Assembly (NCBI GenBank): GCA_030649345.1
Contig: JAUSKK010000027.1
Span: forward strand, 1 to 28,116
Direction: 5' to 3'
Length of the DNA: 28,116 bases
Source of the DNA: Candidatus Iainarchaeum sp.
Lineage (GTDB): Archaea > Iainarchaeota > Iainarchaeia > Iainarchaeales > 0-14-0-20-34-12
Shown here one piece after another: positions 3,701 through 27,746 of this stretch. Within the stretch, counting starts at the first letter, position 1, and each line of letters starts with the position of its first letter. Below the pieces are notes generated by a model. The model was not told the origin of the DNA. It saw only the letters and a list, made by a program, of their open reading frames with translations, and searched no databases. A program made the position numbers and the translations under genes.

Positions 3701-3732
3701 TAATTAGCGCTTTGGACAACTTAACTGAGTAA
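712..3732 (+). CDS. large secreted cell-surface (S-layer-like) protein, 1007 aa
   Basis: The ORF track extends to 535, but the internal ATG at 712 has a GAGGTGA RBS. It begins a classic signal peptide, MNGLNVKKLVALGIGAALVGAAVAPLASAQA. The mature part is S/T/G/N/V-rich with many N-x-S/T sequons and no TM segments, and a strong terminator follows. Confidence 0.8.
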   Translation: MNGLNVKKLVALGIGAALVGAAVAPLASAQALDRSALFNESGDPIVDVVVGAGSQPSDGVWAANIAAKLAQLAYVEVAGTTDATGTYTGTISTGGGEESISSTGSYVIDTNTMSSTSGAKEFGRVTYTRSQLPWLVDKAYTQLLNSTNYSVTIKEEIHVNCDLLFDYTRTTVADLVGTCPGVGDFNYTVAASSGQPLVVLDAATGTTTDFSDGSDDYIVVPFFGQEYTVFSVTTSGTKPSETISSIKLAKSANERTLVAGEELEVAGVNNYAGQTLKLKLDGVSQTSSGGTYSGSFVVTDEEGNQVVSLNTGDGIFLAQSLRDASGQLVTSTENYISRISLDVSRDPAVGSVVLLTGSDILDLRADQYPFNSSDSDTSNDRWKVAFGPHVNSSSPDVNAISTISVYNNNISVSLRDSTNPLYSKNSSLTGKGTESEWNFLAGEPVGTNGKDFVIMRFDGWKTDNIRFSTLTIGGSVSGSSSGSSTGVVYKDSTGFEHKVPFYYTLSTSSQGGSTFTLDGATFYYRVSTSDLNFTLAGGDTNIINGYNPIKTLLDANLPLNTDQGDLNFSSLSVGVVSGVALGATRNIDLNGVNYYCTRTSATGHALNCAADGNLMVSTNGKSFSPEPVAGDVIGGTNQNRTWYYDDGNLAGKTTRAINQLAITSTTGMNSKTYNYVPYVNETQGRMYLLLGAGGVGGQAITDTENTNSFDFTFYGTDTGEDLIEDRYFYWPDFQELPNFEGSSTILGQTTTKSTSSPTGDSSDTAYFTAVFDVDTNKDAAYNAEVYVDTSTGKLVTLPNANLSIVSADVNFHNGQPSGNLWSLSDRTDVVVLHAGYDDYGTKISVADKVATFMVPHEAVKTKTTFYGSSTTVTVSEPVVVTYTCNPGDTEVVVEVGGSNQTVICPGAAAAGTTTRVYSTVEASVVLDSDAFNSAGPHIIVGGHLVNTLAESVVLADGRTSAEALTQSGDKVMEVLSNGNVYVAGWTAADTQSAARDLISALDNLTE

Positions 3733-3744
3733 GTTTAACAAAAA

Positions 3745-3785
3745 GGAAGAGACTAACCTCTCTTCTCTTTTTTTCTCTTTTTTTA
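3745..3785 (+). terminator. stem-loop plus T-tract terminator after the surface-protein gene
   Basis: GGAAGAGA (3745-3752) pairs with TCTCTTCT (3759-3766) around loop CTAACC. It is followed by CTTTTTTTCTCTTTTTTT. Confidence 0.6.
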
Positions 3786-3826
3786 TTTCATTCTATTTTT
3801 TAAATCTTTTTTAATACATTTTCTTT

Positions 3827-4456
3827 ATGAATAAAACTAAAATTTTGCTTGGCATTGCTTTAGTATTGATTGCAGTCAATGCATTTTTTTTTAGTTTTGC
3901 TTTATTGAATAAGCCCAATTATGCATTTACTTCAGAAGTAAACGGAGTTTTACTGGTTTCCAATACTGGAAATCCATTTGATTTATTGAAAACATTTAGT
4001 GAAACTTATTCTATTAATTTAGCTCCCTTGTATTTGCCTTCAGATAAAAGTGTTGAAAATTCTGTTTTATTGAATAATTCGGTTATGCCTTTTGTTGTGG
4101 TATTGAATGCCAATGACAAAAATGCAGTTTTGGTTACTTTAAATAATGCAGTTGATTCAACAAATTTTTCAGATTGTTATACTAATTTTGGAGATGTGAA
4201 TACTTCTGAATTGCTTGCAAAAGAAGTTTGTCAAAGTTTACTGGCTAATTCCAATTCTAAAACAATTTATTTTCCGCACCCAGATCCAAATGTTTCTAAG
4301 CCAATGGCTGTAATTGAATTGAATCAAATTACTATAAAAGTATCCAGATATACTGATTTTCCTTTGGTTTCTTTGACTGTATTAAGACAATTATACAAAA
4401 ATACTGATGATGCTATTGGCCGTACAAATACTCTGGCCGCCATCTATACCCAGTAA
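3827..4456 (+). CDS. membrane-anchored/secreted hypothetical protein, 209 aa
   Basis: ATG start with an N-terminal hydrophobic anchor (KILLGIALVLIAVNAFFFSFALL). No known domain recognised. Confidence 0.6.
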   Translation: MNKTKILLGIALVLIAVNAFFFSFALLNKPNYAFTSEVNGVLLVSNTGNPFDLLKTFSETYSINLAPLYLPSDKSVENSVLLNNSVMPFVVVLNANDKNAVLVTLNNAVDSTNFSDCYTNFGDVNTSELLAKEVCQSLLANSNSKTIYFPHPDPNVSKPMAVIELNQITIKVSRYTDFPLVSLTVLRQLYKNTDDAIGRTNTLAAIYTQ

Positions 4457-4657
4457 AACATCTCAAAAAACGAATCAAAGGCACTATATTGTTCAAAATA
4501 ATGTGTTTTTGATTAAATTTTGTTGGGTGACTGCCTTAATTTAGGATTGTTTTTGAATTAATTTTTTGATTTTTTTTAATTTGTTTCCTTTTTCAATAGT
4601 TCCTTATTCTTTTTAATTAGATTATTTTAATATGGGTATTATTTGGGTTTTTTGTTT

Positions 4658-5953
4658 ATGCATTTGCGTGGTAAAACTATTTTTGTCTTTGGCTTATTTG
4701 TCTTGATTTCTGTCTTAGGTGTTTTGCTAAGTATTACTCCTTGGATGGTTCTTTTTTTGTCGTTGATTTTTTTAAGTGTTGCGTCTGTTTTTATTTTTGT
4801 TTACGAAGACTTCAGTGACAAATTGGTTTTAGGCAACAAAAAAATTAGTTATCCTTCTTTATCTGTTTTAATTCCTTGTTATAATGCTAGTGCTAGTATT
4901 CTGCAATGTGTTCAGGCAATTAAAAATATGGATTACCCTCAGCCATTTGAGGTTATTGTAATTGATGATGGCAGCAAAGATAATTCAGTTGCTTTGGTTA
5001 AAACTGTTTCGGGTGTTCGGGTTATTGTAAAAGAAAAAAATTCCGGAAAAGCCAATTGTTTAAATCTTGGGTTAAAAGAAGCTCAAGGTGAATTGGTTGT
5101 TTGCATTGATGCTGACACTTATCCTGAAAAAGATTGTTTAATGAAAATGGTGCCTTTGTTTGAGTCAGAAAAAGTAGGAGCTGTAACTGCTTTAATTAAA
5201 CCGTATAAGCCTTCAAATTTATTGCAGAGAATTCAATCCATTGAGTATTTGGTTGGTTTTGGTTTTTATCAGTCCATGTTGTCTGTAATGGATGCTGCTT
5301 TTGTTACACCTGGGCCAATGTGTGTTTATCGGAAAAAATATTTATTGGAAATAGGCGGATATGATGAACAAAATATTACTGAAGATATGGATATTGCATT
5401 GAATTTGCAAAAACATCATTATCAAATCAAAGCATGTCATTATGCCACAGTTTATACTGAAGTGCCTGTAACTTTGTCTCATTGGATTAAGCAAAGATTA
5501 CGATGGTATCGTGGTAAAATTTTTAACACAAAAAAATACAAAGATCTTTTGTTCAATAAAGAATATGGTCATTTAGGCCGGTTTACTTTGCCATTTACTT
5601 TTTTACTGGAACTTGCTTCAGTTTTGTCAATTTTTATTGTGTTGGCTAATTTGGCGGATGTTTTGTTTTATGCAGGAAACGTGTTTTTTATTGGGTTGTC
5701 GGTGGGTGTTGGCCCAAAACTTGAATTGCCTAAAATTATCATTAATTCTTCAACCGTTCTTTTTTATTTAATTATGCTGTTTATATTTAGTGTGAATTTG
5801 TATTTGGCATTCAAAGTATCTAGGCAAAAACTGAGTTTAAGTCAGTTTCCTGTAATGCTTGTGTTAATTATGGCATATACTACTGCCGTGGCTTTGATTT
5901 GGATGTATAGTTTGTTTTTAGAATTAAATCATGCAAAAAAGGTTTGGTTATAA
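4658..5953 (+). CDS. family 2 glycosyltransferase, processive beta-glycan synthase type (PgaC/IcaA/NodC/chitin-synthase-like)
   Basis: Motifs VIDDGSKDNS, CIDADT, ITEDMD and QRLRWYRG (QxxRW), with N- and C-terminal TM segments. ATG at 4658 is preferred over the TTG at 4643. Confidence 0.85.
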   Translation: MHLRGKTIFVFGLFVLISVLGVLLSITPWMVLFLSLIFLSVASVFIFVYEDFSDKLVLGNKKISYPSLSVLIPCYNASASILQCVQAIKNMDYPQPFEVIVIDDGSKDNSVALVKTVSGVRVIVKEKNSGKANCLNLGLKEAQGELVVCIDADTYPEKDCLMKMVPLFESEKVGAVTALIKPYKPSNLLQRIQSIEYLVGFGFYQSMLSVMDAAFVTPGPMCVYRKKYLLEIGGYDEQNITEDMDIALNLQKHHYQIKACHYATVYTEVPVTLSHWIKQRLRWYRGKIFNTKKYKDLLFNKEYGHLGRFTLPFTFLLELASVLSIFIVLANLADVLFYAGNVFFIGLSVGVGPKLELPKIIINSSTVLFYLIMLFIFSVNLYLAFKVSRQKLSLSQFPVMLVLIMAYTTAVALIWMYSLFLELNHAKKVWL

Positions 5954-6588
5954 TGAATTTTTACGTAAAAGCAATTTTGTTGACAATATTTTTTATGGCT
6001 GCTGGTTTGTTTATTGTGTATCAATTGGATTTGGTTTCAATTGGAAAAATCAGAACTCAATTGGATGACTTAAGTATTGAATTGGAAACATCCAAGCTGA
6101 TGTTTTTGTATTCTCAATCTTTGGATGATCAGAATGTTTATTGTTCTGTTTTGGAACGACAAATTGATACACAGGCTGGAAAATTAATGCCTTTACTTTC
6201 TTCTTTAGGAATTACTCAAAGAGAAATTTTTTTGGGTAATTTAGATCAAGTGAAAAAGCGTTATTTTTTAGCCAATGCGGAATTGTATTACTATTTACGG
6301 GAATCCAACAAAACTTGCTCTAAAGATGTTGCGTTGATTCTTTATTTTTATACTGATCAAACGCGATGTGCTGATTGTGAAGTGCAAGGAGAAATCTTGG
6401 ACCGCGTTCGAACTCATTGTTCTAATGCAAAAATTTTTGCTTTTCCAATTGATTTTAAATTAGAAATGGTTAATTTGTATTTATCTTTATTTGACGTAAG
6501 TTCTGCTCCGGCTATTGTTATTGATGAAAAAGAAACTTTGACTGGGCTGCAAACATATGAGTCGATTGTTGAAAAAATTCATTGTTAG
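5953..6588 (+). CDS. membrane-anchored thioredoxin-fold protein (CxxC)
   Basis: ATG at 5953 overlaps the upstream TAA by 1 nt (TAATG). It has an N-terminal TM helix. C-terminal part: YFYTDQTRCADCEVQG ... SSAPAIVIDEKETLTG, consistent with a thioredoxin-like CxxC and a cis-Pro region. Confidence 0.65.
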   Translation: MNFYVKAILLTIFFMAAGLFIVYQLDLVSIGKIRTQLDDLSIELETSKLMFLYSQSLDDQNVYCSVLERQIDTQAGKLMPLLSSLGITQREIFLGNLDQVKKRYFLANAELYYYLRESNKTCSKDVALILYFYTDQTRCADCEVQGEILDRVRTHCSNAKIFAFPIDFKLEMVNLYLSLFDVSSAPAIVIDEKETLTGLQTYESIVEKIHC

Positions 6589-6645
6589 TTTTTTTATTCC
6601 ATGTTTTTTTGTTTTTGATTAATTATTGGTTTCCAGCAGGCAATA

Positions 6646-7938
6646 ATGTATGGATTATTGCGGATTATTTGTATGGTTTATGGGTTTGCGAGTATTATGT
6701 TTGATGTTTTCTTTTGGATTGCTTTGGCTATTTCAGCTTTTTATATGATTTTGTTTGTATTTACTTTACTTTTTCGAACGCATATAAACGAAAAAGAGCC
6801 GGTATTTATTGAATCAAAGACACTATTTGTAAGTGTTCATATTCCGACTCGAAATGAATTGGTAGCTATTTCGTGTGCTAAAGCTTGTTTGGAGTTTGAT
6901 TATCCTCAAAATAAGTTTGAAATTTTGATTGGTGATGACAGTGACCAGCCGGAAGTTTCAAAAAAGCTTGCGGAATTTGCTCAACAGCATTCTTCCAGAG
7001 TTCGAGTGATTCAGCGGGCAAAAAATATTGGATTTAAGGCTGGAAACTTAAATAATTTAATTCCATTTTCTCGTGGAGAAATTTTTGTAATTTTTGATTC
7101 AGACTTTATTCCTAAAAAAGATTTTTTGAAAAGAATTATTGCCCCGTTTTTGTATGATTCAAAATTGGCTGCAGTTCAAGCTAGATGGAAGCCTAAAAAT
7201 TCAGGTCAAAATATTATTTCTATTCTGGCAGCCAATGTAGTGGAAGTATTTCATTATGTAATGATTCCATTCATGCGATGGGTTACAGGTACTGTGGTTA
7301 TTTGCGGTTCAGCGGAAGCTGTCCGAAAATCGTATTTAATTCAATATGGAAATTGGCAAAATGGAAGTTTAACGGAAGACATTGAATATTCGTTCCGATT
7401 AATTCAAGCAGGTCATACCATTACTTATTTGGAAAATTTAGAATGTGAATGCGAAGTTCCATTTAATGCTAAAGATTTGTACAGGCAACAAATGCGTTGG
7501 GCGTATGGTGTCATGAGTGCTTTTCGTCAGCACTTTATTGGAACCATGCTGTCTAAAATTCCGTTTAATCGAAAATTTTCATTGGGTTTAGCCAGTATTG
7601 GTTATTTGTTGACTGTGATTTTGGAAATTTTGTTTGTAGTGGGTTTCCTTAAATTAAGCGGAGTATTTATTTTTCCAGCCCAGCATATTTTGGTTTTGTT
7701 TTTGCAGACTTTATTTTATGTATTGTTAACCATTGGTCCGATTTTAGTGGCTGTTTTGGTTTTATTTATTACTCAAAAAGCAGATCAAATCTATAAATTT
7801 TTACTGTCTACGTTTTCGTACGGTATTTTGACTATTTATTATGTCAATGTAGGAATTTACAAAGCTTTATTCAATAAGCCAATGCAATGGTTTTTGGTTG
7901 CTAAATCTGGAAATACTTTGGCTGAAAAAAAGAACTAA
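6646..7938 (+). CDS. family 2 glycosyltransferase, cellulose-synthase-like processive type
   Basis: Motifs IGDDSD, GFKAGNLNN (resembles BcsA HAKAGNLN), FDSDF, LTEDIE and QQMRWAYG, plus multiple C-terminal TM helices. Confidence 0.85.
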   Translation: MYGLLRIICMVYGFASIMFDVFFWIALAISAFYMILFVFTLLFRTHINEKEPVFIESKTLFVSVHIPTRNELVAISCAKACLEFDYPQNKFEILIGDDSDQPEVSKKLAEFAQQHSSRVRVIQRAKNIGFKAGNLNNLIPFSRGEIFVIFDSDFIPKKDFLKRIIAPFLYDSKLAAVQARWKPKNSGQNIISILAANVVEVFHYVMIPFMRWVTGTVVICGSAEAVRKSYLIQYGNWQNGSLTEDIEYSFRLIQAGHTITYLENLECECEVPFNAKDLYRQQMRWAYGVMSAFRQHFIGTMLSKIPFNRKFSLGLASIGYLLTVILEILFVVGFLKLSGVFIFPAQHILVLFLQTLFYVLLTIGPILVAVLVLFITQKADQIYKFLLSTFSYGILTIYYVNVGIYKALFNKPMQWFLVAKSGNTLAEKKN

Positions 7939-7939
7939 C

Positions 7940-9199
7940 TTATTCCATTTCATTTGATTTAGTGATTTCTTGCAATACTGTGGTTGCATAATTTCCTTTA
8001 CTTAAACTGAACTGCAGTACACACGCCAGTTTTCCTGCATTGAATTCATCGGGTTGAATTTTTAATATTTTAAAGTTTTCTGGAATTAATGCAATCTCTT
8101 TTCTGGTTCCCTTGCACGAACATTCAGGTAAAACTTTTAATCTAAAGTCTTCAAATTGGACTTGTTCTTTTTCCAGTATTTGTTTTTCAATTTCTCCAAT
8201 TTTTCCTTCCGTAAATTGGCTATCGTATCCTGGCAGTAAAACCAAAGCAATGCCTTGTTCATTTACAGGTTCTCCTGGAATTGCTTTTATGCCTAATCCT
8301 TGATGAATTCGTTCTTGAATAATTTGATTAAAAATATGAGATTGATAAGCATGGGTTAAAAGATACCTTATTTTTTTTGGGAGTTTTTGCAATGCTCCGG
8401 AAAAATCGTTGGGGTTTTTAACTAAATGATTCAATAAAGCCAATTCAAAACTGGCTTTGGGAGAAAATTCTTTTAATGCTTTAGCATAATCTAAAGTTTC
8501 GCCTAAATTTTTTCGAGCTTGCTGCATTTCAATATCTTCTTTTTCTCCAATAACCGTCAAATAAGCTAGTACTGCTTCTTTTACTTTTCCCAAAACCAAA
8601 TATTTTCCAACAATATGTGTGACGCTTCTGTTGCCTCCGAATCGCTGTCCTCCAAAATAATTTGGAATTCCTTTGGAGAGTTCTGGAATGCAAATTTCGA
8701 GTCTTTTTTTTAATTCATTTTCGTCAAGTTCAATATTGCGTACTGTGATTGTGAATTGGTTTCCTTGAAGCATTCCCAATTCAATTCTTTGCGAACTCCA
8801 TTCAAAATTGCGTACATCCATTCCCCAAAGATTTTTTTTCTTTAATAATTCTGCATTGGGTTTCCATACATTGATTCTTTGACAAGTAATTCCGCGTTTG
8901 TCTTTTAAGCCAGCGTAACCTATGCGTTTTATGCTGACTTGAAGTGTTCGAGATAAAACTTTCATTGCAGTGACTGCGTCAATGTTTATTTTTTCTAAAT
9001 CAAAATTTAAGTAATCCAAATTTTCTTTGTTTTCCGGAATTTGAATTTCTGTTTTAGGCTGATTTTCATGAATAAATCGTTGTACTTCACAAATCGTTCC
9101 ATTGGTTTGAATTTCTTCTACGATGAAATCCGTGTATCTGCGTTTAATTTGTCCGCCGGTACCTGGAAAGGTTGTTCCGTATGAAAAAGTTTGAGCCAT
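7940..9199 (-). CDS. truD: tRNA pseudouridine synthase TruD/Pus7 family
   Basis: N-terminal DFIVEE, catalytic-Asp motif GYAGLKDKRGIT, and NYFGGQRFG. 419 aa. Confidence 0.9.
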   Translation of the reverse strand: MAQTFSYGTTFPGTGGQIKRRYTDFIVEEIQTNGTICEVQRFIHENQPKTEIQIPENKENLDYLNFDLEKINIDAVTAMKVLSRTLQVSIKRIGYAGLKDKRGITCQRINVWKPNAELLKKKNLWGMDVRNFEWSSQRIELGMLQGNQFTITVRNIELDENELKKRLEICIPELSKGIPNYFGGQRFGGNRSVTHIVGKYLVLGKVKEAVLAYLTVIGEKEDIEMQQARKNLGETLDYAKALKEFSPKASFELALLNHLVKNPNDFSGALQKLPKKIRYLLTHAYQSHIFNQIIQERIHQGLGIKAIPGEPVNEQGIALVLLPGYDSQFTEGKIGEIEKQILEKEQVQFEDFRLKVLPECSCKGTRKEIALIPENFKILKIQPDEFNAGKLACVLQFSLSKGNYATTVLQEITKSNEME

Positions 9200-9203
9200 A
9201 AAG

Positions 9204-10433
9204 TTACTTGTACCTTAGGAAAGCAGCCAAGCCGCCGAATCCTGCCATAAATTGTTTGCCTTCATCTGTTTCTGTGCTAATAACTTCAGTTTCTGCTCCA
9301 ATACTTTCTGCTTTTTCTCGCAAATAATCAATGTATTCTGCTTCTTCCATGGATTCCATTACATGCTGGCAGTTGGTGCATTTAATTTCACTGCGAACTT
9401 GGTTTTCGTTTAAAACTTTTTCAGTTTCACAATTGGGGCATTTAAATCTATGAATGGTTTTGTCAATTCCTTCACTTAATAAAAGCAATCGAATTTTTCC
9501 AATTTCTAAGGCTTCCAAGACTTCGTTTTCTCCATAGGTGACTAAACCGTTTTTGGCTATTTCAGTTAAAAAGTCTTGGATTAATTTTTTTTCATGAACA
9601 ATAGAGCTATCTTTTAGTAGTTCTCCGGACATGTCGACTACTTCTTTGATTCCGTATTCGTCTGTATAACTGGTGTCTAATTTTCCAATAATTTTGTCTT
9701 TAATTCTGTAATCTAGATTTCCTTCGTCTAAAAATTCTTCTTTGGTAATTCCTGGGCCTGCAATAATCATTCCTTTAAGTTCATTTAAAATCGGAATAAA
9801 TACTCCGCCCATTTTTTCGGCTACTTCTCTGTAAAATTGCTGAGCTGCTTCTTCTCTAAGTCTCTGAAAACGAACAGCACTCTGGCCCCCAGCACGTTCC
9901 TTTCCATGAACTCGACTAGTGAAGTGTCCTACAATATCATATCGTTTTCCGCGTAAGACTGCAACTGTAGCTTCTCGTTTGTCCATGGTTAGAATTCCGT
10001 AAATTTCAGATGTTTTAATCATTTTTTGCAATGGGTCTAAATGGAATTCGGAATCACACCAGTATAATTTGGTGTCCAAGCGTTCAATTGTTTTTAATGC
10101 AAACAACCGGATGTCCGGCCTTCCGCTTCGAGTGCTTACATTTCCGCAAAAAATAACTATTCCTAATTCAGGGATTTTAAAGTCAATGGATTTTAAAAAA
10201 TTAATAATTTTTCGCAAAGCTCCTTGTACATTTTTTCGTGTGGTTGGATCTTTGATATTGGAACTTTGGCTCATTTCTTCGGTTAATTGTCCTGTAACTG
10301 AACTGCGGTCTGCAGTAGGTGGAACATACAAGGAAATAAGTTCTGTTCCAGATCCTTTGAATTCTGCCATTTTTTGCAGTTTTTTCTTAAAAATGCTTTT
10401 TTCGGCTTCACTGGCTGTATGAAATTGAGTCAT
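9204..10433 (-). CDS. prf1: peptide chain release factor aRF1
   Basis: GGQ motif (RAGGQSAVRFQRLREE), YxCxxxF motif (YWCDSEF), a NIKS-position motif reading NIKD, and a Cys4 mini-domain (CPNC...CTNC). 409 aa. Confidence 0.93.
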   Translation of the reverse strand: MTQFHTASEAEKSIFKKKLQKMAEFKGSGTELISLYVPPTADRSSVTGQLTEEMSQSSNIKDPTTRKNVQGALRKIINFLKSIDFKIPELGIVIFCGNVSTRSGRPDIRLFALKTIERLDTKLYWCDSEFHLDPLQKMIKTSEIYGILTMDKREATVAVLRGKRYDIVGHFTSRVHGKERAGGQSAVRFQRLREEAAQQFYREVAEKMGGVFIPILNELKGMIIAGPGITKEEFLDEGNLDYRIKDKIIGKLDTSYTDEYGIKEVVDMSGELLKDSSIVHEKKLIQDFLTEIAKNGLVTYGENEVLEALEIGKIRLLLLSEGIDKTIHRFKCPNCETEKVLNENQVRSEIKCTNCQHVMESMEEAEYIDYLREKAESIGAETEVISTETDEGKQFMAGFGGLAAFLRYK

Positions 10434-10471
10434 TTTTTTACCTGTATATTTTTATTTAACAAAATTCTTTG

Positions 10472-10607
10472 CAAGGTGTTGAATGTTATTTAATTCAATA
10501 CTAATGAATGCATCTTTTTTATTTGTTCAACACCTTGTCAAGGTGTTGAATATTTTTAATGCAATATAAATGAATCAAACATATGTTTTTATTTGTTCAA
10601 CACCTTG
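10472..10607. promoter_or_regulatory. divergent prf1/pyrH control region with four copies of the 12-mer TTCAACACCTTG
   Basis: Copies: CAAGGTGTTGAA 10472-10483; TTCAACACCTTG 10526-10537; CAAGGTGTTGAA 10539-10550 (forming a perfect 12+1+12 palindrome with the previous copy); TTCAACACCTTG 10596-10607. The 22-mer TTTTTATTTGTTCAACACCTTG is repeated exactly at 10516 and 10586. Confidence 0.55.
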
Positions 10608-10616
10608 ATAATCTAC

Positions 10617-11417
10617 ATGGATCAAGGTATTTTTGAAATGTTTGCTCAAGAAAACAATCCTTCGACTCCGGTAACTCCAGCTTATTCTTCTGCATATTCG
10701 ATTCCAGTGGTTGAAAAAATTGTAGTCATTTCCATTGGTGGCTCGATTATTTTAGATGAAAAACCGAAGACGAATTTTATTGCCAAACTGGCTCAGACTA
10801 TTACTGAATTAAACCAAGAAGGCTTTAAAACGTGTTTGGTGGTAGGCGGAGGTTCAACTGCTAGATCGTATATTGCTTCAGCTAAATCATTGGGTGCAAA
10901 TAATTTTGTATTGGATGAGTTAGGCATTTCTGCCAGTCGATTGAATGCCCAGCTTTTAATTAGTAGTTTAGAGAATGCTTTTCCAAAAGTGCTTACAGAG
11001 ATTTCGCAAATTAAACTGGTTTTAGAGAAAGGAAAAATTCCAGTTTTGGCTGGATTATTGCCTGGTTTGACTACAGATTGTATTGCTGCTTTGTGTGCTG
11101 AATTTTTACAGGCAGATTTTATTAATATGACCAATGTAGACGGAGTGTATTCTGCGAATCCAAAAGAAGATGCAAGAGCACGAAAATTTCCAGAATTGAG
11201 TTATGAAAAATTATTGAGTTTGATGCGAATTGCGGATATTAAGCCTGGGCAAAATTTGGTTTTGGATATTCCGGCTTGTTTGATTTTAAAAAGATCTAAA
11301 ATTAAAACAATGGTTTTAGATGGAACTGATTTAGAAAACTTCAAGAATGCAGTTCGCGGTTTAGACTTTGAAGGAACGATTATTCGAGAGACTGAAAAAT
11401 CCGAAGAAGAAATTTAA
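10617..11417 (+). CDS. pyrH: uridylate (UMP) kinase, archaeal type
   Basis: Amino-acid-kinase fold motifs ISIGGSIILDE, VVGGGSTAR and TTDCIAALCAE..MTNVDGVYSANP. ATG at 10617 is preferred over the TTG at 10593; the N-terminal approx 35 aa are non-conserved, so the start is uncertain. Confidence 0.85.
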   Translation: MDQGIFEMFAQENNPSTPVTPAYSSAYSIPVVEKIVVISIGGSIILDEKPKTNFIAKLAQTITELNQEGFKTCLVVGGGSTARSYIASAKSLGANNFVLDELGISASRLNAQLLISSLENAFPKVLTEISQIKLVLEKGKIPVLAGLLPGLTTDCIAALCAEFLQADFINMTNVDGVYSANPKEDARARKFPELSYEKLLSLMRIADIKPGQNLVLDIPACLILKRSKIKTMVLDGTDLENFKNAVRGLDFEGTIIRETEKSEEEI

Positions 11418-11422
11418 TTGTT

Positions 11423-11476
11423 TTAGATTAGTTCTTCGAAAATGTAATTTTCCATGCTTCTTTTTCCTAAAGCCAT
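11423..11476 (-). repeat. orphan duplicate of the last 17 codons plus stop of dph2
   Basis: The reverse complement reads ATG GCT TTA GGA AAA AGA AGC ATG GAA AAT TAC ATT TTC GAA GAA CTA ATC TAA. This gives MALGKRSMENYIFEELI*, identical in protein to the true dph2 C-terminus at 11541-11594, with only synonymous nucleotide differences. Confidence 0.8.
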
Positions 11477-11540
11477 CCGAACCGCGGGGCAAAACCAAGG
11501 TTTTTCCCCTCAGTTCTAGGGAGTTCCTGATCCCCTTTTC

Positions 11541-12548
11541 CTAAATTAATTCTTCGAATATGTAATTTTCCATGGATCTTTTTCCTAAAGCCATTTCTAG
11601 TTCGATTCCGTTGATTAATGGTTTTTTCCATTTTTTGGCATCCTCTATTGAAATGCGGGGGCAAGCTGTACAAACAAAACAATCAATATCCAATCCAATA
11701 AAAAATTCAGGCAAAATTAAATCAGCTGCAAAGACATAAGCTTGTTTTCCGGTTTGTTCAATGGTTTTTTTTAACTGCAAAGCCAATTCTATTCTATATT
11801 GGCCTTCTTTTAAGCTGACCAATATTCCAAATTTTTGTGCTCTTTGAGCTAAAGCAATTAATCCATATCTTTGTCTAAGGTATCGTTCTTTGTCTCCTTT
11901 TAATTCTTCGATGGTTTCATTTAATGGATTGAGTGCAAAAATCTTTTTATCTAAAGTAAATTGAATCGGCAAAGAATGAAAATTTCCATCGCCTACATAC
12001 ACAATGCAATCTACTTGGTTTTCAATACTTTTTACACTTAAAGCATCACAGCCCAATAATTGGGCTTCTCCGGTTAATTTTCCTTTTCCGGTTTTTATTT
12101 CCAATCCTTGTTGAGTTAAATATTTTTTTAAAAATTCAATGGTTGGCTTGAATTGAATAACTCCAGATATTCCAATGGTTTTGATTTTTTCTTTTTGCAA
12201 TTTTTTAACCAATTCATTTCCAAGTTTTTCTTCTACTCTGGAATCAATTTCATATAATAAAGGAATGTAGATTGTTTTTCCAAAATCTTTTTTCACAAAC
12301 TGCGTGTGCCCAAAATGCAAAATGATGTCTGCTTTGAGCTGGTTGCGTTCGTATTCTGCTAAATCACAGGCTCCGAACACAGGATCGCATAAAACAATGC
12401 ATTGTGCGCCTGTTTGGGTTTGAATTTCGTTTACAATTTCAAAACTTTTAACTTTTAATCCTTCCGGTAATTGAATGACTACGCGTTTAGCTTTTTGTTT
12501 TTGAATTTCTTGAATTCCTTCGCTTAAGTCTAGAATAAGTTCGGACAT
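11541..12548 (-). CDS. dph2: diphthamide biosynthesis enzyme Dph2 (2-(3-amino-3-carboxypropyl)histidine synthase)
   Basis: About 335 aa with typical archaeal Dph2 length and layout (three-domain alpha/beta protein with conserved Cys). ATG at 12548 (MSELILDL) is preferred over the TTG at 12566. The TATA-like CCTTTTAAAAAAGG lies just upstream. Confidence 0.85.
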   Translation of the reverse strand: MSELILDLSEGIQEIQKQKAKRVVIQLPEGLKVKSFEIVNEIQTQTGAQCIVLCDPVFGACDLAEYERNQLKADIILHFGHTQFVKKDFGKTIYIPLLYEIDSRVEEKLGNELVKKLQKEKIKTIGISGVIQFKPTIEFLKKYLTQQGLEIKTGKGKLTGEAQLLGCDALSVKSIENQVDCIVYVGDGNFHSLPIQFTLDKKIFALNPLNETIEELKGDKERYLRQRYGLIALAQRAQKFGILVSLKEGQYRIELALQLKKTIEQTGKQAYVFAADLILPEFFIGLDIDCFVCTACPRISIEDAKKWKKPLINGIELEMALGKRSMENYIFEELI

Positions 12549-12733: not shown

Positions 12734-15124
12734 TTAAAAAACCTGTTGGTTTTTTAAATGCGCTAATAGAATGCGTTTTTCTTCTGCCATGACTGTGTTT
12801 TTGATTTTTTGCACTGCATCAATATTGGCACTAATGCTGTTGATTCCAAATTGAATTAATTTTTTAACCATTTCTGGATTGCTGCCGGCTTGTCCGCAGA
12901 TACTGGTTTCAATTCCATAATTTTTGCATTTTTCAATAACCATTTTAATCTGGCCTAAAACAGCTGGATGTAATTCAGTGAATTGTTTTTGAATACGTTC
13001 ATTGTTTCGGTCAATTCCTAAAGTTAATTGTGTTAAATCATTGGTTCCAAATGAAACAAAATTAATTCCTTCTTGGGCAAAGTCTTCAATAATCCAGCAA
13101 GCTGCTGGTGTTTCTACCATGACTCCAAATTTTACTTTTTGAGATCCTAGTTCTAAGCCTACTTGTTTGGCAATTACTTTAGCTGCTTGTATTTCGTTAA
13201 CATGAATTACGAATGGCAGCATGACTCCAATATTGGTGTAGCCTTCTTCAGCTAATTCTTTAATGGCTTGAAATTGTGCTTTTAATAAATCCGGTTGATC
13301 CAAGTCTCTTCGGATTCCATGCCAGCCCATCATGGGATTGAATTCTTTGGGTTCTTTATTGCCTCCTTTTAGCATATGGAATTCATCTGTTCTGGCATCA
13401 AAGGTTCGATACCATACAGGATATCCTTTGAATGCATTGGCCACTCCCAAGATTCCTTTTTTGACTACTTGAACCAATTCATTGTATTTTCCTTCTCGTA
13501 AATATTGTGCTGGGTGTTTATTGGTTATGGCAATCATGTGTTCTGCGCGCAGTAATCCTACTCCTTGAGCTCCGCTGTCAGCTGCGCGTTGGGCTCCATC
13601 CGGTAAAGCTACATTGACTTTAACTTTTGCAGAAATTTTTTCCAATATTTCTAATATTTTTGCTTCATTTTCTTCTAATTCTTTTTCGCTGAGGTCTTGT
13701 TTTTCAATTGCGTTTAAATTTAATGCACGCATTAAGTCTGGAATTTCTGTTCGTGCAATAATTTTTTCTGTTTGCGTTTCTGGTAAAACCAGTTCTACTT
13801 TTCCGTCGTATACTTCTCCATTGTATCCATTGACTGTTACTATTTGTCCATTTTTTAAAACACGGGTGGCATTACCGGATCCAACAGAACACGGAATTCC
13901 TAATTCTCGGCTGACAATAGCTGCATGGGCTGTAATTCCTCCTTCATCTGTAATAATGGCTGAAGATTTTTTCATTAAAGGAACCCAAGCTGGTTCGGTC
14001 ATTTTGGTGACCAAGACTTCGCCTTGTTTTATTTTTTGGGCATCTTTCATTGTTTTAGCAATGCGGACTGCTCCAAATCCAATGCCTGGACTGGCCGCCA
14101 ATCCTTGCAATATTTTTTTAGCATCTTTTGTTTTCAGTACTTTTTCTCGTTCGCTTTTAATATTGGCTTTCAATGAAAGTGTAGTAATGGCTCGGCTTTG
14201 AACAATAAATAATTCGTTGTCTTCAATAGCCCATTCAATATCTTGCGGTACTTTGTAATAGGCTTCAATTCGTTTTCCAATGGCTGCAATTTCTAATGTT
14301 TGTTGGTCAGTGATTTTTTGTTTTTGCCAGTCTTTTTTAGACACCGAAGTTTTTTTGGTTTTGCCTTTAAATTTTACAATTTGCCACTCTTGTTTGCTAA
14401 TGTGTTTTTTAATAATTTGGAGTTGTTCTTTCTCAATCAAGAATGTGTCTGGCGTAATGCTTCCAGAGACAATGCTTTCTCCTAAACCATAGCCTGCTTC
14501 TACAATTAAATTATTGGATTGCCCTGTTGGATCTTGAGTAAACATGACTCCGCTGATCGCACTGTTTACCATTTTTTGTACAACAACTGCAATTCCAACT
14601 TGACTGGTTTCAAATCCTTGTTTTTTTCGATAATAGGTTGCTCTGGCTGTAAATAAGGAAGCCCAGCAGTCTCGGACTCTTTGAATTAATTCTTTTTCGC
14701 CGTGAACATTCAAGTAAGTTTCTTGTTGTCCTGCGAATGAAGCTTCGGCTAAGTCTTCAGCTGTTCCACTGGATCGTACAGCTAAATAAATGTCTTTGTA
14801 TTTTTTGAATTTTTTAAAATTTTGAATAATTTCTTTTTCCAATTCTTTACTCATTTTTGTATTTTTAACCAAAGCCCTGATTTTGGCAGAAACTGTTTCC
14901 AATTCTTCATTATTATCGACATCAATGGAGTTTGCCAATTGCAGTATTTTTTCTTTAATTCCTGTTTCTTGAATGTATTTGAAATAAGCTTGAGCTGTAA
15001 CCACAAAGCCTGGAGGAACTGGAAATTTGGCCTGGGTCATGATTCCTAAGTTTAATCCTTTTCCACCAACTATTTCTAAATCACTTTTTTGAATTTGATT
15101 AAACCAAAGAATGTTTTCAGTCAC
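12734..15124 (-). CDS. ppsA: phosphoenolpyruvate synthase (pyruvate, water dikinase)
   Basis: N-terminal ATP-grasp region (GGKGLNLGIM), phosphohistidine swivel motif GGITAHAAIVSRELGIPCSVG, and C-terminal PEP-utilising TIM barrel (FVSFGTNDLTQLTLGIDR). 796 aa. Confidence 0.93.
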   Translation of the reverse strand: MTENILWFNQIQKSDLEIVGGKGLNLGIMTQAKFPVPPGFVVTAQAYFKYIQETGIKEKILQLANSIDVDNNEELETVSAKIRALVKNTKMSKELEKEIIQNFKKFKKYKDIYLAVRSSGTAEDLAEASFAGQQETYLNVHGEKELIQRVRDCWASLFTARATYYRKKQGFETSQVGIAVVVQKMVNSAISGVMFTQDPTGQSNNLIVEAGYGLGESIVSGSITPDTFLIEKEQLQIIKKHISKQEWQIVKFKGKTKKTSVSKKDWQKQKITDQQTLEIAAIGKRIEAYYKVPQDIEWAIEDNELFIVQSRAITTLSLKANIKSEREKVLKTKDAKKILQGLAASPGIGFGAVRIAKTMKDAQKIKQGEVLVTKMTEPAWVPLMKKSSAIITDEGGITAHAAIVSRELGIPCSVGSGNATRVLKNGQIVTVNGYNGEVYDGKVELVLPETQTEKIIARTEIPDLMRALNLNAIEKQDLSEKELEENEAKILEILEKISAKVKVNVALPDGAQRAADSGAQGVGLLRAEHMIAITNKHPAQYLREGKYNELVQVVKKGILGVANAFKGYPVWYRTFDARTDEFHMLKGGNKEPKEFNPMMGWHGIRRDLDQPDLLKAQFQAIKELAEEGYTNIGVMLPFVIHVNEIQAAKVIAKQVGLELGSQKVKFGVMVETPAACWIIEDFAQEGINFVSFGTNDLTQLTLGIDRNNERIQKQFTELHPAVLGQIKMVIEKCKNYGIETSICGQAGSNPEMVKKLIQFGINSISANIDAVQKIKNTVMAEEKRILLAHLKNQQVF

Positions 15125-15253
15125 ATTATTTTTTAGGAAATTGAAGTTTAAATAATTGCTGTTTGCACAAAAAGTATGACTGAATATGCACGCAAAATTG
15201 TACTAAATTTAAGAATTTGAGTATAAAAAATAGAAAAAAATTGCAGACTAAAT

Positions 15254-15997
15254 TTATTTTTTCTTGCCTGCGTCTTTTTTGGCTGGAGCTGCTTCTTTTC
15301 CTGTGGGTGCTTTTCCGCCAGCAGGTGCAGTTGTTTTTCCAGAAGCTTCTTTTCCATCGGCTGTGGCAGGTGCTGCAGTTTCCCCTTCTTTGGTAACTGT
15401 TTCGGCTCCAGCTTTAACTGTGGTTTCAATGGCAACATCAGTGATTTCTTTAGGTCGTGTTCCAATGCTTTTAGTATCTGTTCCAACTTTAACATGTACA
15501 CCGCAGGACATTTTTTTGTTAGCCCGCATTAATGCTTTGCTGGTTAAAGCAATATCTTTTTCATCCACTAAAATGCTCATAATGGTATCGTTTTTTAGAA
15601 CTCGAACAGCTCGTCCAACTGGTCTTCCGAATGGATGACTCATTCCGTCACTGACACGATCTGCTCCAGCTCCTTGAGCCATTTTGTTTTCTCGCAAAAT
15701 GTGATGAGGGTATTGTCGGATTCGCATAAAATAATTATCTTTTCCTAGAACTCGGTTTAAGTATCGGTTAATGGAAATTCGTGAAGATTCAATTGCATTG
15801 TCTCGGACTTGAGTTGCGCGTACTGCTTTAGCGTCTAAAATGTGGCTAAATTCTTTGACTGGATTTCCCATATTGAATTGTCTAATTTTTACTTGAGGAA
15901 TGGTTCCAATATAATTTTTTTTATGAACAGTTACAGCCACTCGTGTATAGGGTCGTTCGTCTAAACTACGGTAACATCGTGCAGGTCGTATTCCCAT
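15254..15997 (-). CDS. rpl10e: 50S ribosomal protein L10e (uL16) with a low-complexity C-terminal extension
   Basis: MGIRPARCYR... N-terminus and the conserved L10e core. The last approx 70 aa are A/G/K/T/E-rich (..APATADGKEASGKTTAPAGGKAPTGKEAAPAKKDAGKKK). Confidence 0.92.
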   Translation of the reverse strand: MGIRPARCYRSLDERPYTRVAVTVHKKNYIGTIPQVKIRQFNMGNPVKEFSHILDAKAVRATQVRDNAIESSRISINRYLNRVLGKDNYFMRIRQYPHHILRENKMAQGAGADRVSDGMSHPFGRPVGRAVRVLKNDTIMSILVDEKDIALTSKALMRANKKMSCGVHVKVGTDTKSIGTRPKEITDVAIETTVKAGAETVTKEGETAAPATADGKEASGKTTAPAGGKAPTGKEAAPAKKDAGKKK

Positions 15998-16134
15998 TTA
16001 AAAAACCCCGCAGTTTTTTAAAGACTTAAAATTTACGGTAAATTTTAATCCCATAACAGATCACATTTTTCATTAAAAAGAGCTTAAATTGCGCTTATAT
16101 TATTAAGTAAAACCAAAGTATTTTAAAACAAACT

Positions 16135-16671
16135 TTAGGCTACTTTTATTTGGCATTCTGGGCATAAGCCTAAAATTCGTTCAGAGGCTTTAAATAAACT
16201 GAATAAAATAATCAATGTGCCCAAGATCACGAATTCCCATCTATGATCTATCAAAAAAAACACTCCGTTGGCTCCCAAGATGCCAAAAAAGGCAGCTACA
16301 CAGCTAGCGCAAGTGGCACTAGCGAAAATAGCGCTGGCAATTGCTGAAAGGCCTGCTAAAGCTGTTCCTGTGCTATTTTTGACTGAAATTTCTTTATTTA
16401 AATTATAAATATGTGCTTGCATGCTGACCAATAAGCCTGTGCCTAAAACTAAAAACACTGTGTATGCTGACTGTAAACTGGTAAGTTGTCCAATATACGC
16501 TTCTAAATTTTTGCCTGGAACTGAATTGATTTCCACAAAAATAATTAAAGTTAATAAAATTAAAGAAGAAAGAATGCTGATGGCTAAATATTTGGGTTGC
16601 TTTAAAATAGATTTAATTCCTTTAAAGATTGTAGAAAAAAAATAACTTGGCTTTAAAATTTTAATTTTCAT
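16135..16671 (-). CDS. four-TM membrane protein with an intramembrane CxxC and a C-terminal CxxC
   Basis: 178 aa with predicted TM helices. CASC lies within the hydrophobic segment ASATCASCVAAFFGILG, and CPEC lies near the C-terminus. It is last in a minus-strand operon with the DsbA-like gene. Confidence 0.65.
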   Translation of the reverse strand: MKIKILKPSYFFSTIFKGIKSILKQPKYLAISILSSLILLTLIIFVEINSVPGKNLEAYIGQLTSLQSAYTVFLVLGTGLLVSMQAHIYNLNKEISVKNSTGTALAGLSAIASAIFASATCASCVAAFFGILGANGVFFLIDHRWEFVILGTLIILFSLFKASERILGLCPECQIKVA

Positions 16672-16719
16672 AAAAAAAAATAAAAAAAGAAAGGCAGAAT
16701 TGAATCTGCCTTATTGAAA

Positions 16720-17568
16720 TTAACTTAAATTACTCCAATTGTCTTGTGTTTGAAATAATTTGTCATGCATTTCCAAAGCTTTTCCTTGTTCTTTAGCACA
16801 TTCATAAGCTAAAGCTGCAGGCATTGCATTCGGATGGAAACTCAAAGGATAATGTCTGTACTGAAATTTGATTTTTCCAGTTTGAACATATTCTTGTTTG
16901 AGCTGCACTAAACTTGCATCGTACAATCGTTTACAGAAAGGACACTGAAAGTCAGAATATTCTACCACTGTTACAGGTGCAGTTTCTTGCCCCATTAAAG
17001 TAAAGCTTCCGACATAGGTATCCATATTGGGAACTACGGCATCAGCATCTGCATCTTGGGCTGTTCCATCGGCTACTTTATCTAAAAGAGCTTTAATGGT
17101 TGCATAAGGTACAGCTCCTACGACAATGTATCCTTTTTGTCCTGGTTTTCCAATAACCAAAGTAGGTGTTCCGCCTTGGCCTTGTGCTTTTAATCCGGAT
17201 TCAGTAAATAATTGTTCTCCAGATTGATAATCTGCGTCAATAAATGTTTTATACTTTTGAGTTGAAACACACGAATTAAAACTAACTGCATTGGTGGCTC
17301 CAGTTTGTTGTGCTGTGCTGGCTAAATATTGTGCTGCAGTCTGAGAAGGTGCTGCGGCTGTTCCAGCAGTGCCTAAATTTCCAACAGTGCCTGCTGTTCC
17401 AGTGGTTCCTGTTCCGGCTGTGGCTAAATTTAATCCGGAAAGTTTTTCGCCTAAAGCATTTCCTGTAGTCATAATACTGACACTTAAAATAATACTGGCT
17501 AACAATACACTGATGGCCAACAAAGTTGTGCTGGATAATGTAAAGCTTAATGTTTTTTCTTCACTCAT
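16720..17568 (-). CDS. membrane-anchored DsbA/thioredoxin_4-like thiol:disulfide oxidoreductase with apparently permuted domain order
   Basis: N-terminal TM anchor and a G/T/A-rich linker. Next comes a segment resembling the C-terminal half of DsbA (FNSCVSTQKY...GGTPTLVIG...). After it comes the N-terminal half, VVEYSDFQCPFCKR...HPNAMPAALAYECAKEQG..LFQTQDNW, ending at the stop. RBS GGAGG..GGTGA lies upstream. Confidence 0.8.
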   Translation of the reverse strand: MSEEKTLSFTLSSTTLLAISVLLASIILSVSIMTTGNALGEKLSGLNLATAGTGTTGTAGTVGNLGTAGTAAAPSQTAAQYLASTAQQTGATNAVSFNSCVSTQKYKTFIDADYQSGEQLFTESGLKAQGQGGTPTLVIGKPGQKGYIVVGAVPYATIKALLDKVADGTAQDADADAVVPNMDTYVGSFTLMGQETAPVTVVEYSDFQCPFCKRLYDASLVQLKQEYVQTGKIKFQYRHYPLSFHPNAMPAALAYECAKEQGKALEMHDKLFQTQDNWSNLS

Positions 17569-17573
17569 TCAAT

Positions 17574-17849
17574 TCACCTTTCCTCCGTAATGCACTGAAT
17601 CGTGCAACTAACTTGTTTTGAAGAATTCAATTCTGAAAACTGAATTTCTACTGGTTCGGCAGAAAACATTTGTTCTGAATTAATTTCTGCTGTAAATTTT
17701 TTTTCTTCGTTTTGGATTTCCAAGCTAACCATTCCAGTAATTTCTGAACTGGAATTATCGGCTTTGGTTAAACCAATTAATCCAACAAAAACAATTAAAG
17801 CAGTAATGCCTAAAATCAAATATTTTTGTGAATCCATAGTGTATCCCAT
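17574..17849 (-). CDS. small secreted/membrane-anchored protein, 91 aa
   Basis: N-terminal hydrophobic segment (YLILGITALIVFVGLIGL). Its TGA stop lies inside the RBS of the downstream DsbA-like gene, which implies co-transcription. Confidence 0.5.
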   Translation of the reverse strand: MGYTMDSQKYLILGITALIVFVGLIGLTKADNSSSEITGMVSLEIQNEEKKFTAEINSEQMFSAEPVEIQFSELNSSKQVSCTIQCITEER

Positions 17850-17898
17850 GATAATGTAAGTATAATGTAACCTTAATGTAACACTTCTTTTAAACCTT

Positions 17899-18264
17899 TT
17901 GTTTTTAGTTTTATTTGAGTTTAATACTATTATAATTGTTTTTTTTGGGTGGATGGTTGATTTTGTGGATTGGAGTTCTGTTTTATTTTTAGTATTTTCT
18001 TTGTTGGCTGTAGTGTTTGCTTTTTTGCTGTCTCGTGAATCTTCGCATGAAAAATATTGGGTGTTTTTTGTTTTGGGTTCTTTAGCTTTGGTTGCTTGGA
18101 GTATTTTGGAAAATTTTTTGGTTTCTGTTTTTGATGTTGGTTTTCAATCTTTGTTGTTGGATGTATTTCAAGTAATGACTGCGTTTTGTTTTGCGTATGC
18201 TTTTTTTGGTTTGTATTCTGGCATGAAACAAGTTCGTAAAAAAGTTTCCGAAAAATTTGATTAA
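17899..18264 (+). CDS. small polytopic membrane protein, about 103-121 aa
   Basis: Strongly hydrophobic ORF with 3-4 predicted TM helices. The track start is TTG and an in-frame ATG lies at 17953. It sits immediately upstream of a wHTH gene. Confidence 0.45.
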   Translation: MFLVLFEFNTIIIVFFGWMVDFVDWSSVLFLVFSLLAVVFAFLLSRESSHEKYWVFFVLGSLALVAWSILENFLVSVFDVGFQSLLLDVFQVMTAFCFAYAFFGLYSGMKQVRKKVSEKFD

Positions 18265-18275
18265 CGGATTTGTGT

Positions 18276-18545
18276 ATGAAAGCTGTTTTGTTTTATTGGG
18301 GTAAAGGTTCGGAAGTTCGAGTTAAAATTTTGTTAGAGCTTTATCGTTGTTCAGGTTCGAATACTCCGTGTTATTTGAATTCTTTGGCTGACTATTTGAA
18401 GTTGTCGCATGTGGCTGTGAAAAAGCATTTGGATTTATTGCTGGAACACAAATATGTTCGGCCTGTGAATCCTTTGGGCAAGCCGGTGTATTTGGAATTG
18501 TCGGAACAAGGAAACGAAGTTGTAAAAGAGTTTTTAAGCAAGTGA
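18276..18545 (+). CDS. small winged-helix (ArsR/MarR-like) transcription regulator
   Basis: About 89 aa. RVKILLELYR...YLNSLADYLKLSHVAVKKHLDLLLEHKYV fits a helix-turn-helix plus wing. ATG at 18276 is preferred over the TTG at 18270. Confidence 0.65.
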   Translation: MKAVLFYWGKGSEVRVKILLELYRCSGSNTPCYLNSLADYLKLSHVAVKKHLDLLLEHKYVRPVNPLGKPVYLELSEQGNEVVKEFLSK

Positions 18546-18742
18546 TTGTATGCAAAAACTTAAACGGAAATCCAAACAATTGGAGTTTAAGTTTAATATT
18601 AAAACAAAATGATGCAAATTTAGACTTCGATGGTTGCTGGGTTTATCCAAACGAATGCAGGCTTTTTTTTGAGTTAGGCTCAAACAAGGCTTTAAATTTA
18701 TGCGAGCCAAGGATTCAACTGGCTTGTTTTTGCATTATTTTA

Positions 18743-18839
18743 AAGTTTTAGAATAATTTATTAAGTTTTAGAATAATATGTTTTAAGATAATTTGCTGAG
18801 TTTAGGATGCGTATTTGAGTTTTAGAATAGTTTAATTTG
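18743..18839. repeat. degenerate approx 20-bp tandem repeats with core AGTTTTAGAATA upstream of the GNAT gene
   Basis: AAGTTTTAGAATAAT starts at 18743 and 18763. AGTTTAGGATG is at 18799 and AGTTTTAGAATAG at 18818. Confidence 0.6.
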
Positions 18840-18861
18840 TTTTTTGAAGAAAGGAAATCGT

Positions 18862-19446
18862 ATGGCTGTGCAAAAGAAAGTTTTAGGCAAAATAAAATCT
18901 AAACCACAAATCCGAAAATCAAAACAACTTTCATTTCGGTTTCGTGAGCGAACTCATTTTCATTCAGAAAAAGTTCAAGCTTTGCTTGGAAAATATTCAA
19001 AAGCAGGTATTCATTCTTTTTTTCGAATGGGCAAACAGATTGTAGGCGAAGTTCACGGTTCTCATGGAGCCAAGGTTTTTTTGTTTTCGTTAAATGAAAC
19101 TTTTAGGCCTAAACAATTGCTGGCAACAGGTTCATTGTATCTTCCAGAATCTATTTATAGTTCTTTTCCTGAATTTCTTGATTTTAAGAAAAAAGGTCAA
19201 GTATTGGAGTTAGGTTATAATTTGCAGGAATTAACTCACGGTGAAGTGCAAGGTCGAGGTTTAGCTCAAACTGTTGCAAATTGTTTAATTGAACAAGCAA
19301 AAAAACTAAAATTACATGGTTTAGTGGCTCGCGTGGAAGGTAAAAATCCTGCCAGTCATCGAATTTTGCGAAAAGCTGGTTTTCGTAGATTTCGAACAGA
19401 GCAAGTTCCAAGAAAAATTGTTTTTTATTATTTGGATTTAAGCTAA
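18862..19446 (+). CDS. GNAT-family N-acetyltransferase
   Basis: Acetyl-CoA motif A-like VQGRGLAQ and the C-terminal VARVEGKNPASHRILRKAGFRRF. ATG at 18862 is preferred over the upstream TTG. Confidence 0.7.
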   Translation: MAVQKKVLGKIKSKPQIRKSKQLSFRFRERTHFHSEKVQALLGKYSKAGIHSFFRMGKQIVGEVHGSHGAKVFLFSLNETFRPKQLLATGSLYLPESIYSSFPEFLDFKKKGQVLELGYNLQELTHGEVQGRGLAQTVANCLIEQAKKLKLHGLVARVEGKNPASHRILRKAGFRRFRTEQVPRKIVFYYLDLS

Positions 19447-27129: not shown

Positions 27130-27284
27130 ATACTAATAATAGGTGGCTACATTATTTAAACATATTGTAAAAAATGGCTACAATTGGCGTGGGTGTGCTT
27201 AAAGTAACTTTTTTACCCCTACACTTTTGCTTATTGGTAAATTTTGCAGGTATAACTTCTTGTAAGAGAGTTATCTTGCAAGTT

Positions 27285-27313
27285 AACTCTACGACAAGCG
27301 GGATACGAGAGTT
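27285..27313. repeat. island repeat element, short copy C
   Basis: AACTCTACGAC-AAGCGGGATACG-AGAGTT. It has the same 12-mer core as copy B, flanked by the AACTCT/AGAGTT arms in swapped order. Confidence 0.45.
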
Positions 27314-27432
27314 GAACTCGTCTGACTCCCTAACTTCGCCTTGCATTTCCCATTGCACCAACGGGTGCTCGCGCAATGTTATTGCATTGCGCAGTTTTCT
27401 CTTTTGGGAAACGTACACTTTTCTCTTTTTCT

Positions 27433-27552
27433 AAAAGAGAAAAGGGGCGCTGCAGGGGAGCGCATAGCCGATCTGCCAATCCCGCAACCAGGGTTCCGGT
27501 TGGTTGAACGTGCTACTTTCGTTAATGCTCAGTAGCACTGCTTTACGGTTTA
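27433..27552 (-). ncRNA. candidate structured small RNA of about 120 nt, unidentified
   Basis: The segment is GC-rich by eye relative to the AT-rich surroundings. It has three hairpins (plus-strand coordinates 27510-27538, 27485-27506, 27447-27463). On the minus strand the last hairpin is followed by CCCTTTTCTCTTTT. A TATA-like TTTAATAATTATT lies about 25 nt upstream of a possible start near 27550. Strand and ends are uncertain. Confidence 0.3.
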
Positions 27553-27732: not shown

Positions 27733-27746
27733 GTGTGGGAGTCAAA

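Follow-up and report, generated by a model that had tools for sequence, protein, structure and literature searches.

The window analysed here is the whole 28,116-bp contig (34.2% GC) of a metagenome-assembled genome (MAG) from an Iainarchaeia/Diapherotrites-like DPANN archaeon with a small genome. Its gene content comprises an S-layer protein, a glycosyltransferase, TruD, aRF1, PyrH, Dph2, a PEP-utilising enzyme, L10e, a DsbA-like protein, a GNAT protein, SulP, a DUF488/SocA protein, a PA14 protein, and a Fic protein. The genes pyrH and dph2 are convergent, and the features at their junction are collected in Table 1. The pyrH stop codon, TAA, occupies 11415–11417, and the start of this gene is uncertain, with the ORF opening at TTG 10593. 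The likely start of dph2 is ATG 12548, in an ORF that opens at TTG 12566, and the encoded protein aligned end to end, through its last residue, with 20 homologues. Dph2, with either start codon, was absent from a collection of 15 billion proteins that does include, from NCBI, ten other proteins encoded on this contig; this absence may result from a pseudogene annotation caused by the duplicated gene tail described below.

Table 1. Features at the pyrH–dph2 junction, numbered by their position in the 28,116-bp window.
Feature	Position	Strand	Basis
pyrH (UMP kinase)	10638–11417	+	Pfam AA_kinase, E=1e-32; homologues named UMP kinase by their sources
Spacer from pyrH stop to orphan stop, 5 nt	11418–11422		Tail-to-tail spacing
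Orphan dph2 tail, 17 codons and stop TAA	11423–11476	−	Translation MALGKRSMENYIFEELI and stop, repeat scan, alignment
GC-rich insert, 64 nt	11477–11540		GC 55%; unique in window
Main hairpin of insert, 18-nt arms, 83% complementary; core 11486–11509, GGGGCAAAACCAAGGTTTTTCCCC	11479–11516		Folding
Weak second hairpin of insert, 4–5-bp stem, 8-nt loop	about 11519–11536		Folding
Working dph2 tail, 17 codons and stop TAG	11541–11594	−	Recoded twin of orphan
dph2 (2-(3-amino-3-carboxypropyl)histidine synthase), intact, full length	11541–12548	−	Pfam PF01866 Diphthamide_syn, E=1e-77

The last 17 codons and the stop codon of dph2 are present twice on the minus strand, once as the working end of the gene and once as an orphan copy next to pyrH. 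Translation of the reverse complement of both intervals gave MALGKRSMENYIFEELI followed by a stop codon, which confirmed the duplication reported in the first-pass annotation; the copies lie in direct orientation, 118 nt apart from start to start. Of their 54 nt, 6 differ, spread over five codons (orphan versus working copy: AGC/TCC for Ser, 2 nt; ATT/ATA for Ile; CTA/TTA for Leu; ATC/ATT for Ile; TAA/TAG for stop), and a recount found all six differences silent and none nonsynonymous, as that annotation had stated. The Ser codons of the two copies belong to different codon families and differ by two nucleotides. The similarity is bounded by the Met codon, again as first described, and by the stop codon, and the flanking sequences are unrelated. 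The longest identical run between the copies is 18 nt, with no N in between. In a repeat scan of the 28,116 bp, the pair was the sole strong repeat, and its local alignment score reached a z of ~27 against shuffled sequences. The orphan tail is undamaged, begins with ATG and has all 17 residues intact. Its reading frame differs from that of dph2 (64 = 3 × 21 + 1), and no evident promoter or ribosome-binding site was found for it.

The history of the two copies was evaluated by simulation. The peptide and its stop codon were preserved after six random substitutions in 8–10 of 400,000 trials (~2e-5). Since a silent-only outcome is thus expected about twice in 100,000 under random substitution, the copies must have evolved apart under selection on the protein, each as coding sequence in its own lineage, before they were joined, which upholds the evolutionary reading of the silent differences given at first pass. 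Moreover, the peptide shows no post-event damage in the orphan tail, suggesting that the joining event is young. All 17 tail residues are retained in the orphan, whereas 5 of them differ in P0001, the nearest recorded Dph2 at 69% identity; the donor was therefore a closer relative than P0001. As the X-Y-X′ layout is symmetric, position does not distinguish the resident tail from the imported one, and the spacing between the orphan tail and pyrH fits either; a comparison of the codon usage of the two tails likewise gave no decision on which is native.

The junction was then placed beside those of relatives, the nearest PyrH being 61% identical. Convergent dph2 and pyrH were found in 18 relatives. 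The gap between the two genes is −9 to 25 nt, with the stops overlapping or close, in 8 of the 18, and unrelated AT-rich DNA or small genes lie between them in the other 10. The closest relative with the junction assembled (L086) has the order TruD, aRF1, pyrH, 12 nt, dph2, and the other convergent pairs in the window are spaced by 1 and 4 nt. Judged from these gene orders, convergent dph2 and pyrH with near-zero spacing are ancestral in the clade and typical of this genome, and the 5-nt tail-to-tail spacing between pyrH and the orphan tail looks native. In a separate feature of this junction, the pyrH and dph2 tails are similar in reverse complement (11402–11438 and 11388–11570; 16 nt at 81% and 29 nt at 72%), a consequence of the shared protein ending ..EE[EL]I, so the native tail-to-tail junction forms an inverted repeat in its own right. 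The aRF1 gene of L086 (1172–3916) encodes a protein of 914 aa with an intein (Intein_splicing and LAGLIDADG matches), as against 409 aa and no intein in the window.

When each of 79 other archaeal dph2 loci was compared with its own gene tail, in nucleotides and in peptides, no orphan copy emerged, and no element flanked dph2 in any of them. The first-pass annotation had proposed a search of relatives for an integrated element at this position; none was present at the 79 loci, and distant relatives showed plain junctions. In addition, no donor or empty-site genome for the dph2 tail was found. Sensitive alignment of the eleven junctions with a sizeable dph2–pyrH gap (ten of the 79 loci and L087) gave a weak signal in L087 only. 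There, the 169-nt AT-rich gap between pyrH and dph2 weakly matches the dph2 tail of the same locus (1115–1151 versus 1182–1223; z = 4.6, 14-nt identity), and the match could reflect either an older orphan copy, now degraded, or a chance similarity of low-complexity sequence.

The 64-nt insert between the two tails has a GC content of 54.7%, compared with 34.2% for the window, and folds into one strong and one weak hairpin; both properties had been noted at first pass and held on re-examination. Its fold energy is −22 to −26 kcal/mol, with a modest z of ~−2.3 against shuffled sequences that becomes −0.9 once the flanks are included. The insert contains no tRNA and matched no Rfam family even at permissive thresholds. 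A search for further copies, also proposed earlier, found no second copy within the 28-kb window and no match in 185,579 GTDB species representatives (this genome not among them), IMG/VR, or phage or plasmid records, and no conservation of the insert was seen in any relative examined. No terminal inverted repeats were found, nor a short identical target-site duplication, the repeat being 54 nt long with 6 differences. A consensus scan detected no terminator-like or promoter-like site at the insert, the consensus being bacterial-type and the host archaeal.

Several further candidates were evaluated at this site. In a post hoc comparison, the 6 nt preceding the Met codon of the gene tail, CTAGAA, were seen again at the upstream edge of the 37-nt hairpin block, against an expectation of 0.008 occurrences. 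Extension of the orphan homology across the hairpin block (CTAGAA, ..GI..LE) was not significant (P = 0.24). A bulge-helix-bulge intron was rejected, the predicted fold containing no such motif at 11594/11595 or 11476/11477. A diversity-generating retroelement was also rejected: the differences between the tails include G/C and C/T, instead of being restricted to template adenines, and are all silent, and no reverse transcriptase is encoded in the window.

The 24-nt core of the main hairpin, searched with two loop bases left free, occurred 16 times in JGI metagenome contigs. Fourteen of the 16 occurrences belong to one family, a conserved ~90-nt 5′ leader of tRNA operons (L088, L090–L092 and L094–L103; e.g. 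L097 7007–7121, minus strand). The leader comprises a TATAAT box, a hairpin 1 with four compensatory base pairs, a AAGGAAAAGCGTT spacer, an invariant hairpin 2, ATGA, and the tRNA. The leader stands ahead of tRNA genes or tRNA clusters, its chromosomes are bacterial (with genes for RpoD, DnaG, and Fmt) and come from several metagenomes, and it is not in Rfam; more diverged copies score 54–62 bits (L099 4827–4919, L095 3077–3168). The core of the insert hairpin equals leader hairpin 2 at 24 of 24 nt, so that the imperfect hairpin GGGGAAAAACCTTGGTTTTGCCCC is identical in both, including its asymmetric mismatch. In contrast to the leaders, whose hosts are bacterial, the window has no TATAAT box, covarying hairpin 1, AAGGAAAAGCGTT spacer, or tRNA 4–6 nt downstream. 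A covariance model of the leader matched the window only at model positions 64–87 of 93, which is the 24-nt hairpin, with 27.7 bits, and found no match when applied to about 27 loci from Iainarchaeia. Beyond the hairpin, homology between the insert and the bacterial leader was therefore rejected, as the flanks differ. Because a 24-nt hairpin holds about one arm of information and the occurrences collapse to two independent contexts, homology is not claimed for the hairpin itself, and its identity in the insert and the leader could have arisen by convergence.

Support for the assembly was obtained from independent Logan contigs of run SRR13727527, which match the window at 1271–11291 (1 mismatch) and 13073–19063 (0 mismatches). 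These contigs break between 11291 and 13073, and the dph2 tail junction lies outside their coverage. The single mismatch, at 11263 (L004 position 29; A vs. T), lies 28 nt from the contig end and changes a Leu codon of pyrH to TAG. It probably reflects a read-error tip, not a real variant; strain variation was rejected as its source, given this pyrH stop codon so near the contig end and the agreement of the other Logan contig with the window. A scaffolding artefact is seen in a GTDB MAG (L019, 10905–11135), where a gap of 100 N is flanked on either side by the same 55 nt from the 3′ end of dph2. The tail pair of the window is unlike that artefact, because it has 6 differences, identical runs of at most 18 nt, a unique spacer of 64 nt, and no N. 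From these properties of the sequence, misassembly at the dph2 tail junction appears unlikely.

The first-pass annotation had attributed the duplication to an integrating element that carried a replacement 3′ end for its target gene. The layout on which this claim was built stands, as it is that of e14 in E. coli icd/icdC, where incoming DNA brings a replacement 3′ end and the two copies show mainly synonymous differences (PMC13626634). In e14 and phage 21 at icd, as at dph2, the gene stays functional and the displaced C-terminal fragment forms a direct repeat with mostly synonymous differences (PMC13626634). At the window, a gene tail and an orphan direct repeat with mainly synonymous differences are present, but only 64 nt separate the copies, with no recombinase or cargo, whereas e14 spans 15 kb, encodes an integrase and excises. 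Besides, icd and icdC differ by two conservative amino-acid changes and the dph2 tails by none, and the host and target are E. coli and icd in one case, and a DPANN-type archaeon and dph2 in the other. Among archaeal elements, those of the SSV or pTN3 type target tRNA genes, and family-2 casposons target the 3′ end of aEF-2; casposon target duplications are ~14–15 bp, initially identical and accompanied by terminal inverted repeats, and such elements leave an integrase or Cas1 and cargo. The dph2 site shares with the archaeal 3′-end-targeting elements the duplicated 3′ end of a conserved translation-related gene, but it has none of their integrase or Cas1, cargo, and terminal inverted repeats. 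A version of the claim fitted to these data is that a site-specific integrative element (a virus, plasmid, or island), whose attachment site mimicked the dph2 tail so that its integration kept the gene whole, later underwent an internal deletion that left 64 bp and both attachment copies. Homology confined exactly to the stretch from Met to stop is also what an attachment-site mimic would give, and the insert is compositionally foreign. However, two events would be needed, and a deletion that spares both repeats yet leaves 64 bp would be unusual; moreover, no integrase, transposase, or viral gene is encoded in the 28-kb contig, the 79 other dph2 loci gave no instance, and IMG/VR held no Dph2 relative and no sequence encoding MENYIFEELI. 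We therefore regard an element stump as unlikely, though second only to the explanation favoured below. The further suggestion that the insert is a miniature element or a small RNA fared similarly, in that its two hairpins are real, but it has no terminal inverted repeats, a single copy in the window, and no Rfam match. A complete miniature non-autonomous element, either the 118-bp unit or the hairpin block, moved in trans by a recombinase encoded elsewhere, would account for the exact recurrence of the 24-nt hairpin core in other genomes and for the CTAGAA at the edge of the hairpin block. It is nevertheless very improbable: an identical target duplication is also absent, the match in the bacterial family is limited to the hairpin, with different flanks, about 27 Iainarchaeia loci gave no matches, and hairpins are common, so that the two contexts could be convergent, while the extended homology was not significant. 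Even less credence is given to the fuller proposal that the 118-bp unit is a complete, trans-mobilised DPANN miniature integrative element made of a hairpin module and a recoded target-gene tail, possibly sharing its hairpin with co-occurring uncultured bacteria.

Explanations that involve no element were weighed against the same data. An assembly or library artefact, in the form of a chimeric join of two strain haplotypes or an amplification chimera, is conceivable for a metagenome-assembled contig whose Logan counterpart is broken at this very place, whose Dph2 is missing from the protein collection, and whose gene shows a scaffolding duplicate in L019. Overlap artefacts, however, are exact and k-mer sized, unlike the recoded copies with unique sequence between them, a graph assembler would need spanning reads to produce such a structure, and the Logan contigs on either side are otherwise identical to the window; we judge this explanation improbable. 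A selected module appears quite improbable as well. The insert would then act as a small RNA, or else as a bidirectional terminator or insulator, with the orphan kept as a 17-aa peptide, an antisense regulator of the dph2 tail, or the carrier of a pyrH terminator, which is in line with the tendency of GC-rich islands in this AT-rich genome toward structured RNA, with the undamaged orphan beginning at ATG, and with a T5 run inside the orphan on the pyrH strand. Against such a module stand the modest fold stability, which weakens with flanks included, and the negative results for Rfam, for bacterial-type terminator and promoter consensus sites, for conservation in relatives, and for bulge-helix-bulge motifs at the junctions. 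Finally, the closeness and direct orientation of the copies would fit a tandem-type duplication that arose locally in one genome, with drift afterwards. This possibility was effectively refuted by the simulation, given that all six changes are silent and include the two-step Ser codon-family switch; in addition, the 64-nt spacer has no duplicate and no match in nearby sequence.

We tentatively favour, with somewhat less than an even chance of being right, a recent one-off scar left by a homology-anchored illegitimate join with DNA of a related strain. A one-step join of this kind gives the same structure, so no element is required. We infer that related-strain DNA carrying a dph2 tail and at least 64 bp of its own downstream sequence would have been incorporated in one step, with one end anchored by homology within dph2 and the other attached by an illegitimate join immediately upstream of the Met codon in the resident tail, by homology-facilitated illegitimate recombination or templated break repair. 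The dph2 tail would in this way have been duplicated, not replaced. A donor with a different downstream sequence is plausible, as 10 of the 18 relatives have unrelated DNA between dph2 and pyrH. The orphan tail is untranslated and adjoins pyrH at a spacing typical of the ancestral arrangement, and dph2 is left intact, so the scar is tolerated. Most likely, the structure is harmless and a mobile element is no longer present there. The hairpin-rich spacer between the convergent genes may incidentally be a transcript-end structure, although a function is unnecessary for the explanation.

Homology-facilitated illegitimate recombination comes from the transformable bacteria Acinetobacter and Streptococcus pneumoniae, and we know of no documented case in DPANN archaea. 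The dph2 site resembles it in having one homologous and one illegitimate end and a short non-homologous stretch beside a homeologous patch; unlike in the transformable bacteria, the donor, the anchor crossover, and microhomology are not visible. If the favoured explanation is true, the site preserves a clean and datable record of genetic exchange among related DPANN lineages at an essential gene linked to translation, and direct evidence on DPANN recombination or DNA uptake is, to our knowledge, scarce. Because of such scars, an intact gene can be lost or wrongly labelled by annotation pipelines, with Dph2 missing from the protein collection as a case in point, and a scar of this type could be mistaken for a prophage border. 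The dph2 site counts as one example of an already known type of event and involves no new system or mechanism.

Other features were observed elsewhere in the window. The divergent intergenic region between aRF1 and pyrH contains four copies of the 12-mer TTCAACACCTTG within 136 bp (10472–10607), two per orientation and one pair forming a perfect palindrome, where ~0.2 would be expected; these repeats are probably a transcription-factor operator. At 27560–27735, the two copies of a 30-nt direct repeat (1 mismatch) enclose 116 nt that are richer in GC, and an ATG follows shortly downstream at 27748. A relationship between this repeat-flanked sequence (27590–27705) and the dph2 insert was rejected, as no significant similarity was found. 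Nearby, a stretch of ~280 nt (27270–27550) has no ORF, a GC content of 45–55% compared with 34% for the genome, and no Rfam match at E ≤ 1, and it may be an undescribed structured RNA. In addition, a SocA/Panacea antitoxin-like and DUF488 protein (22705–23553) and a Fic/DOC-family protein (26176–27129) are encoded a few kb apart, and these genes could be toxin-antitoxin or defence-related.
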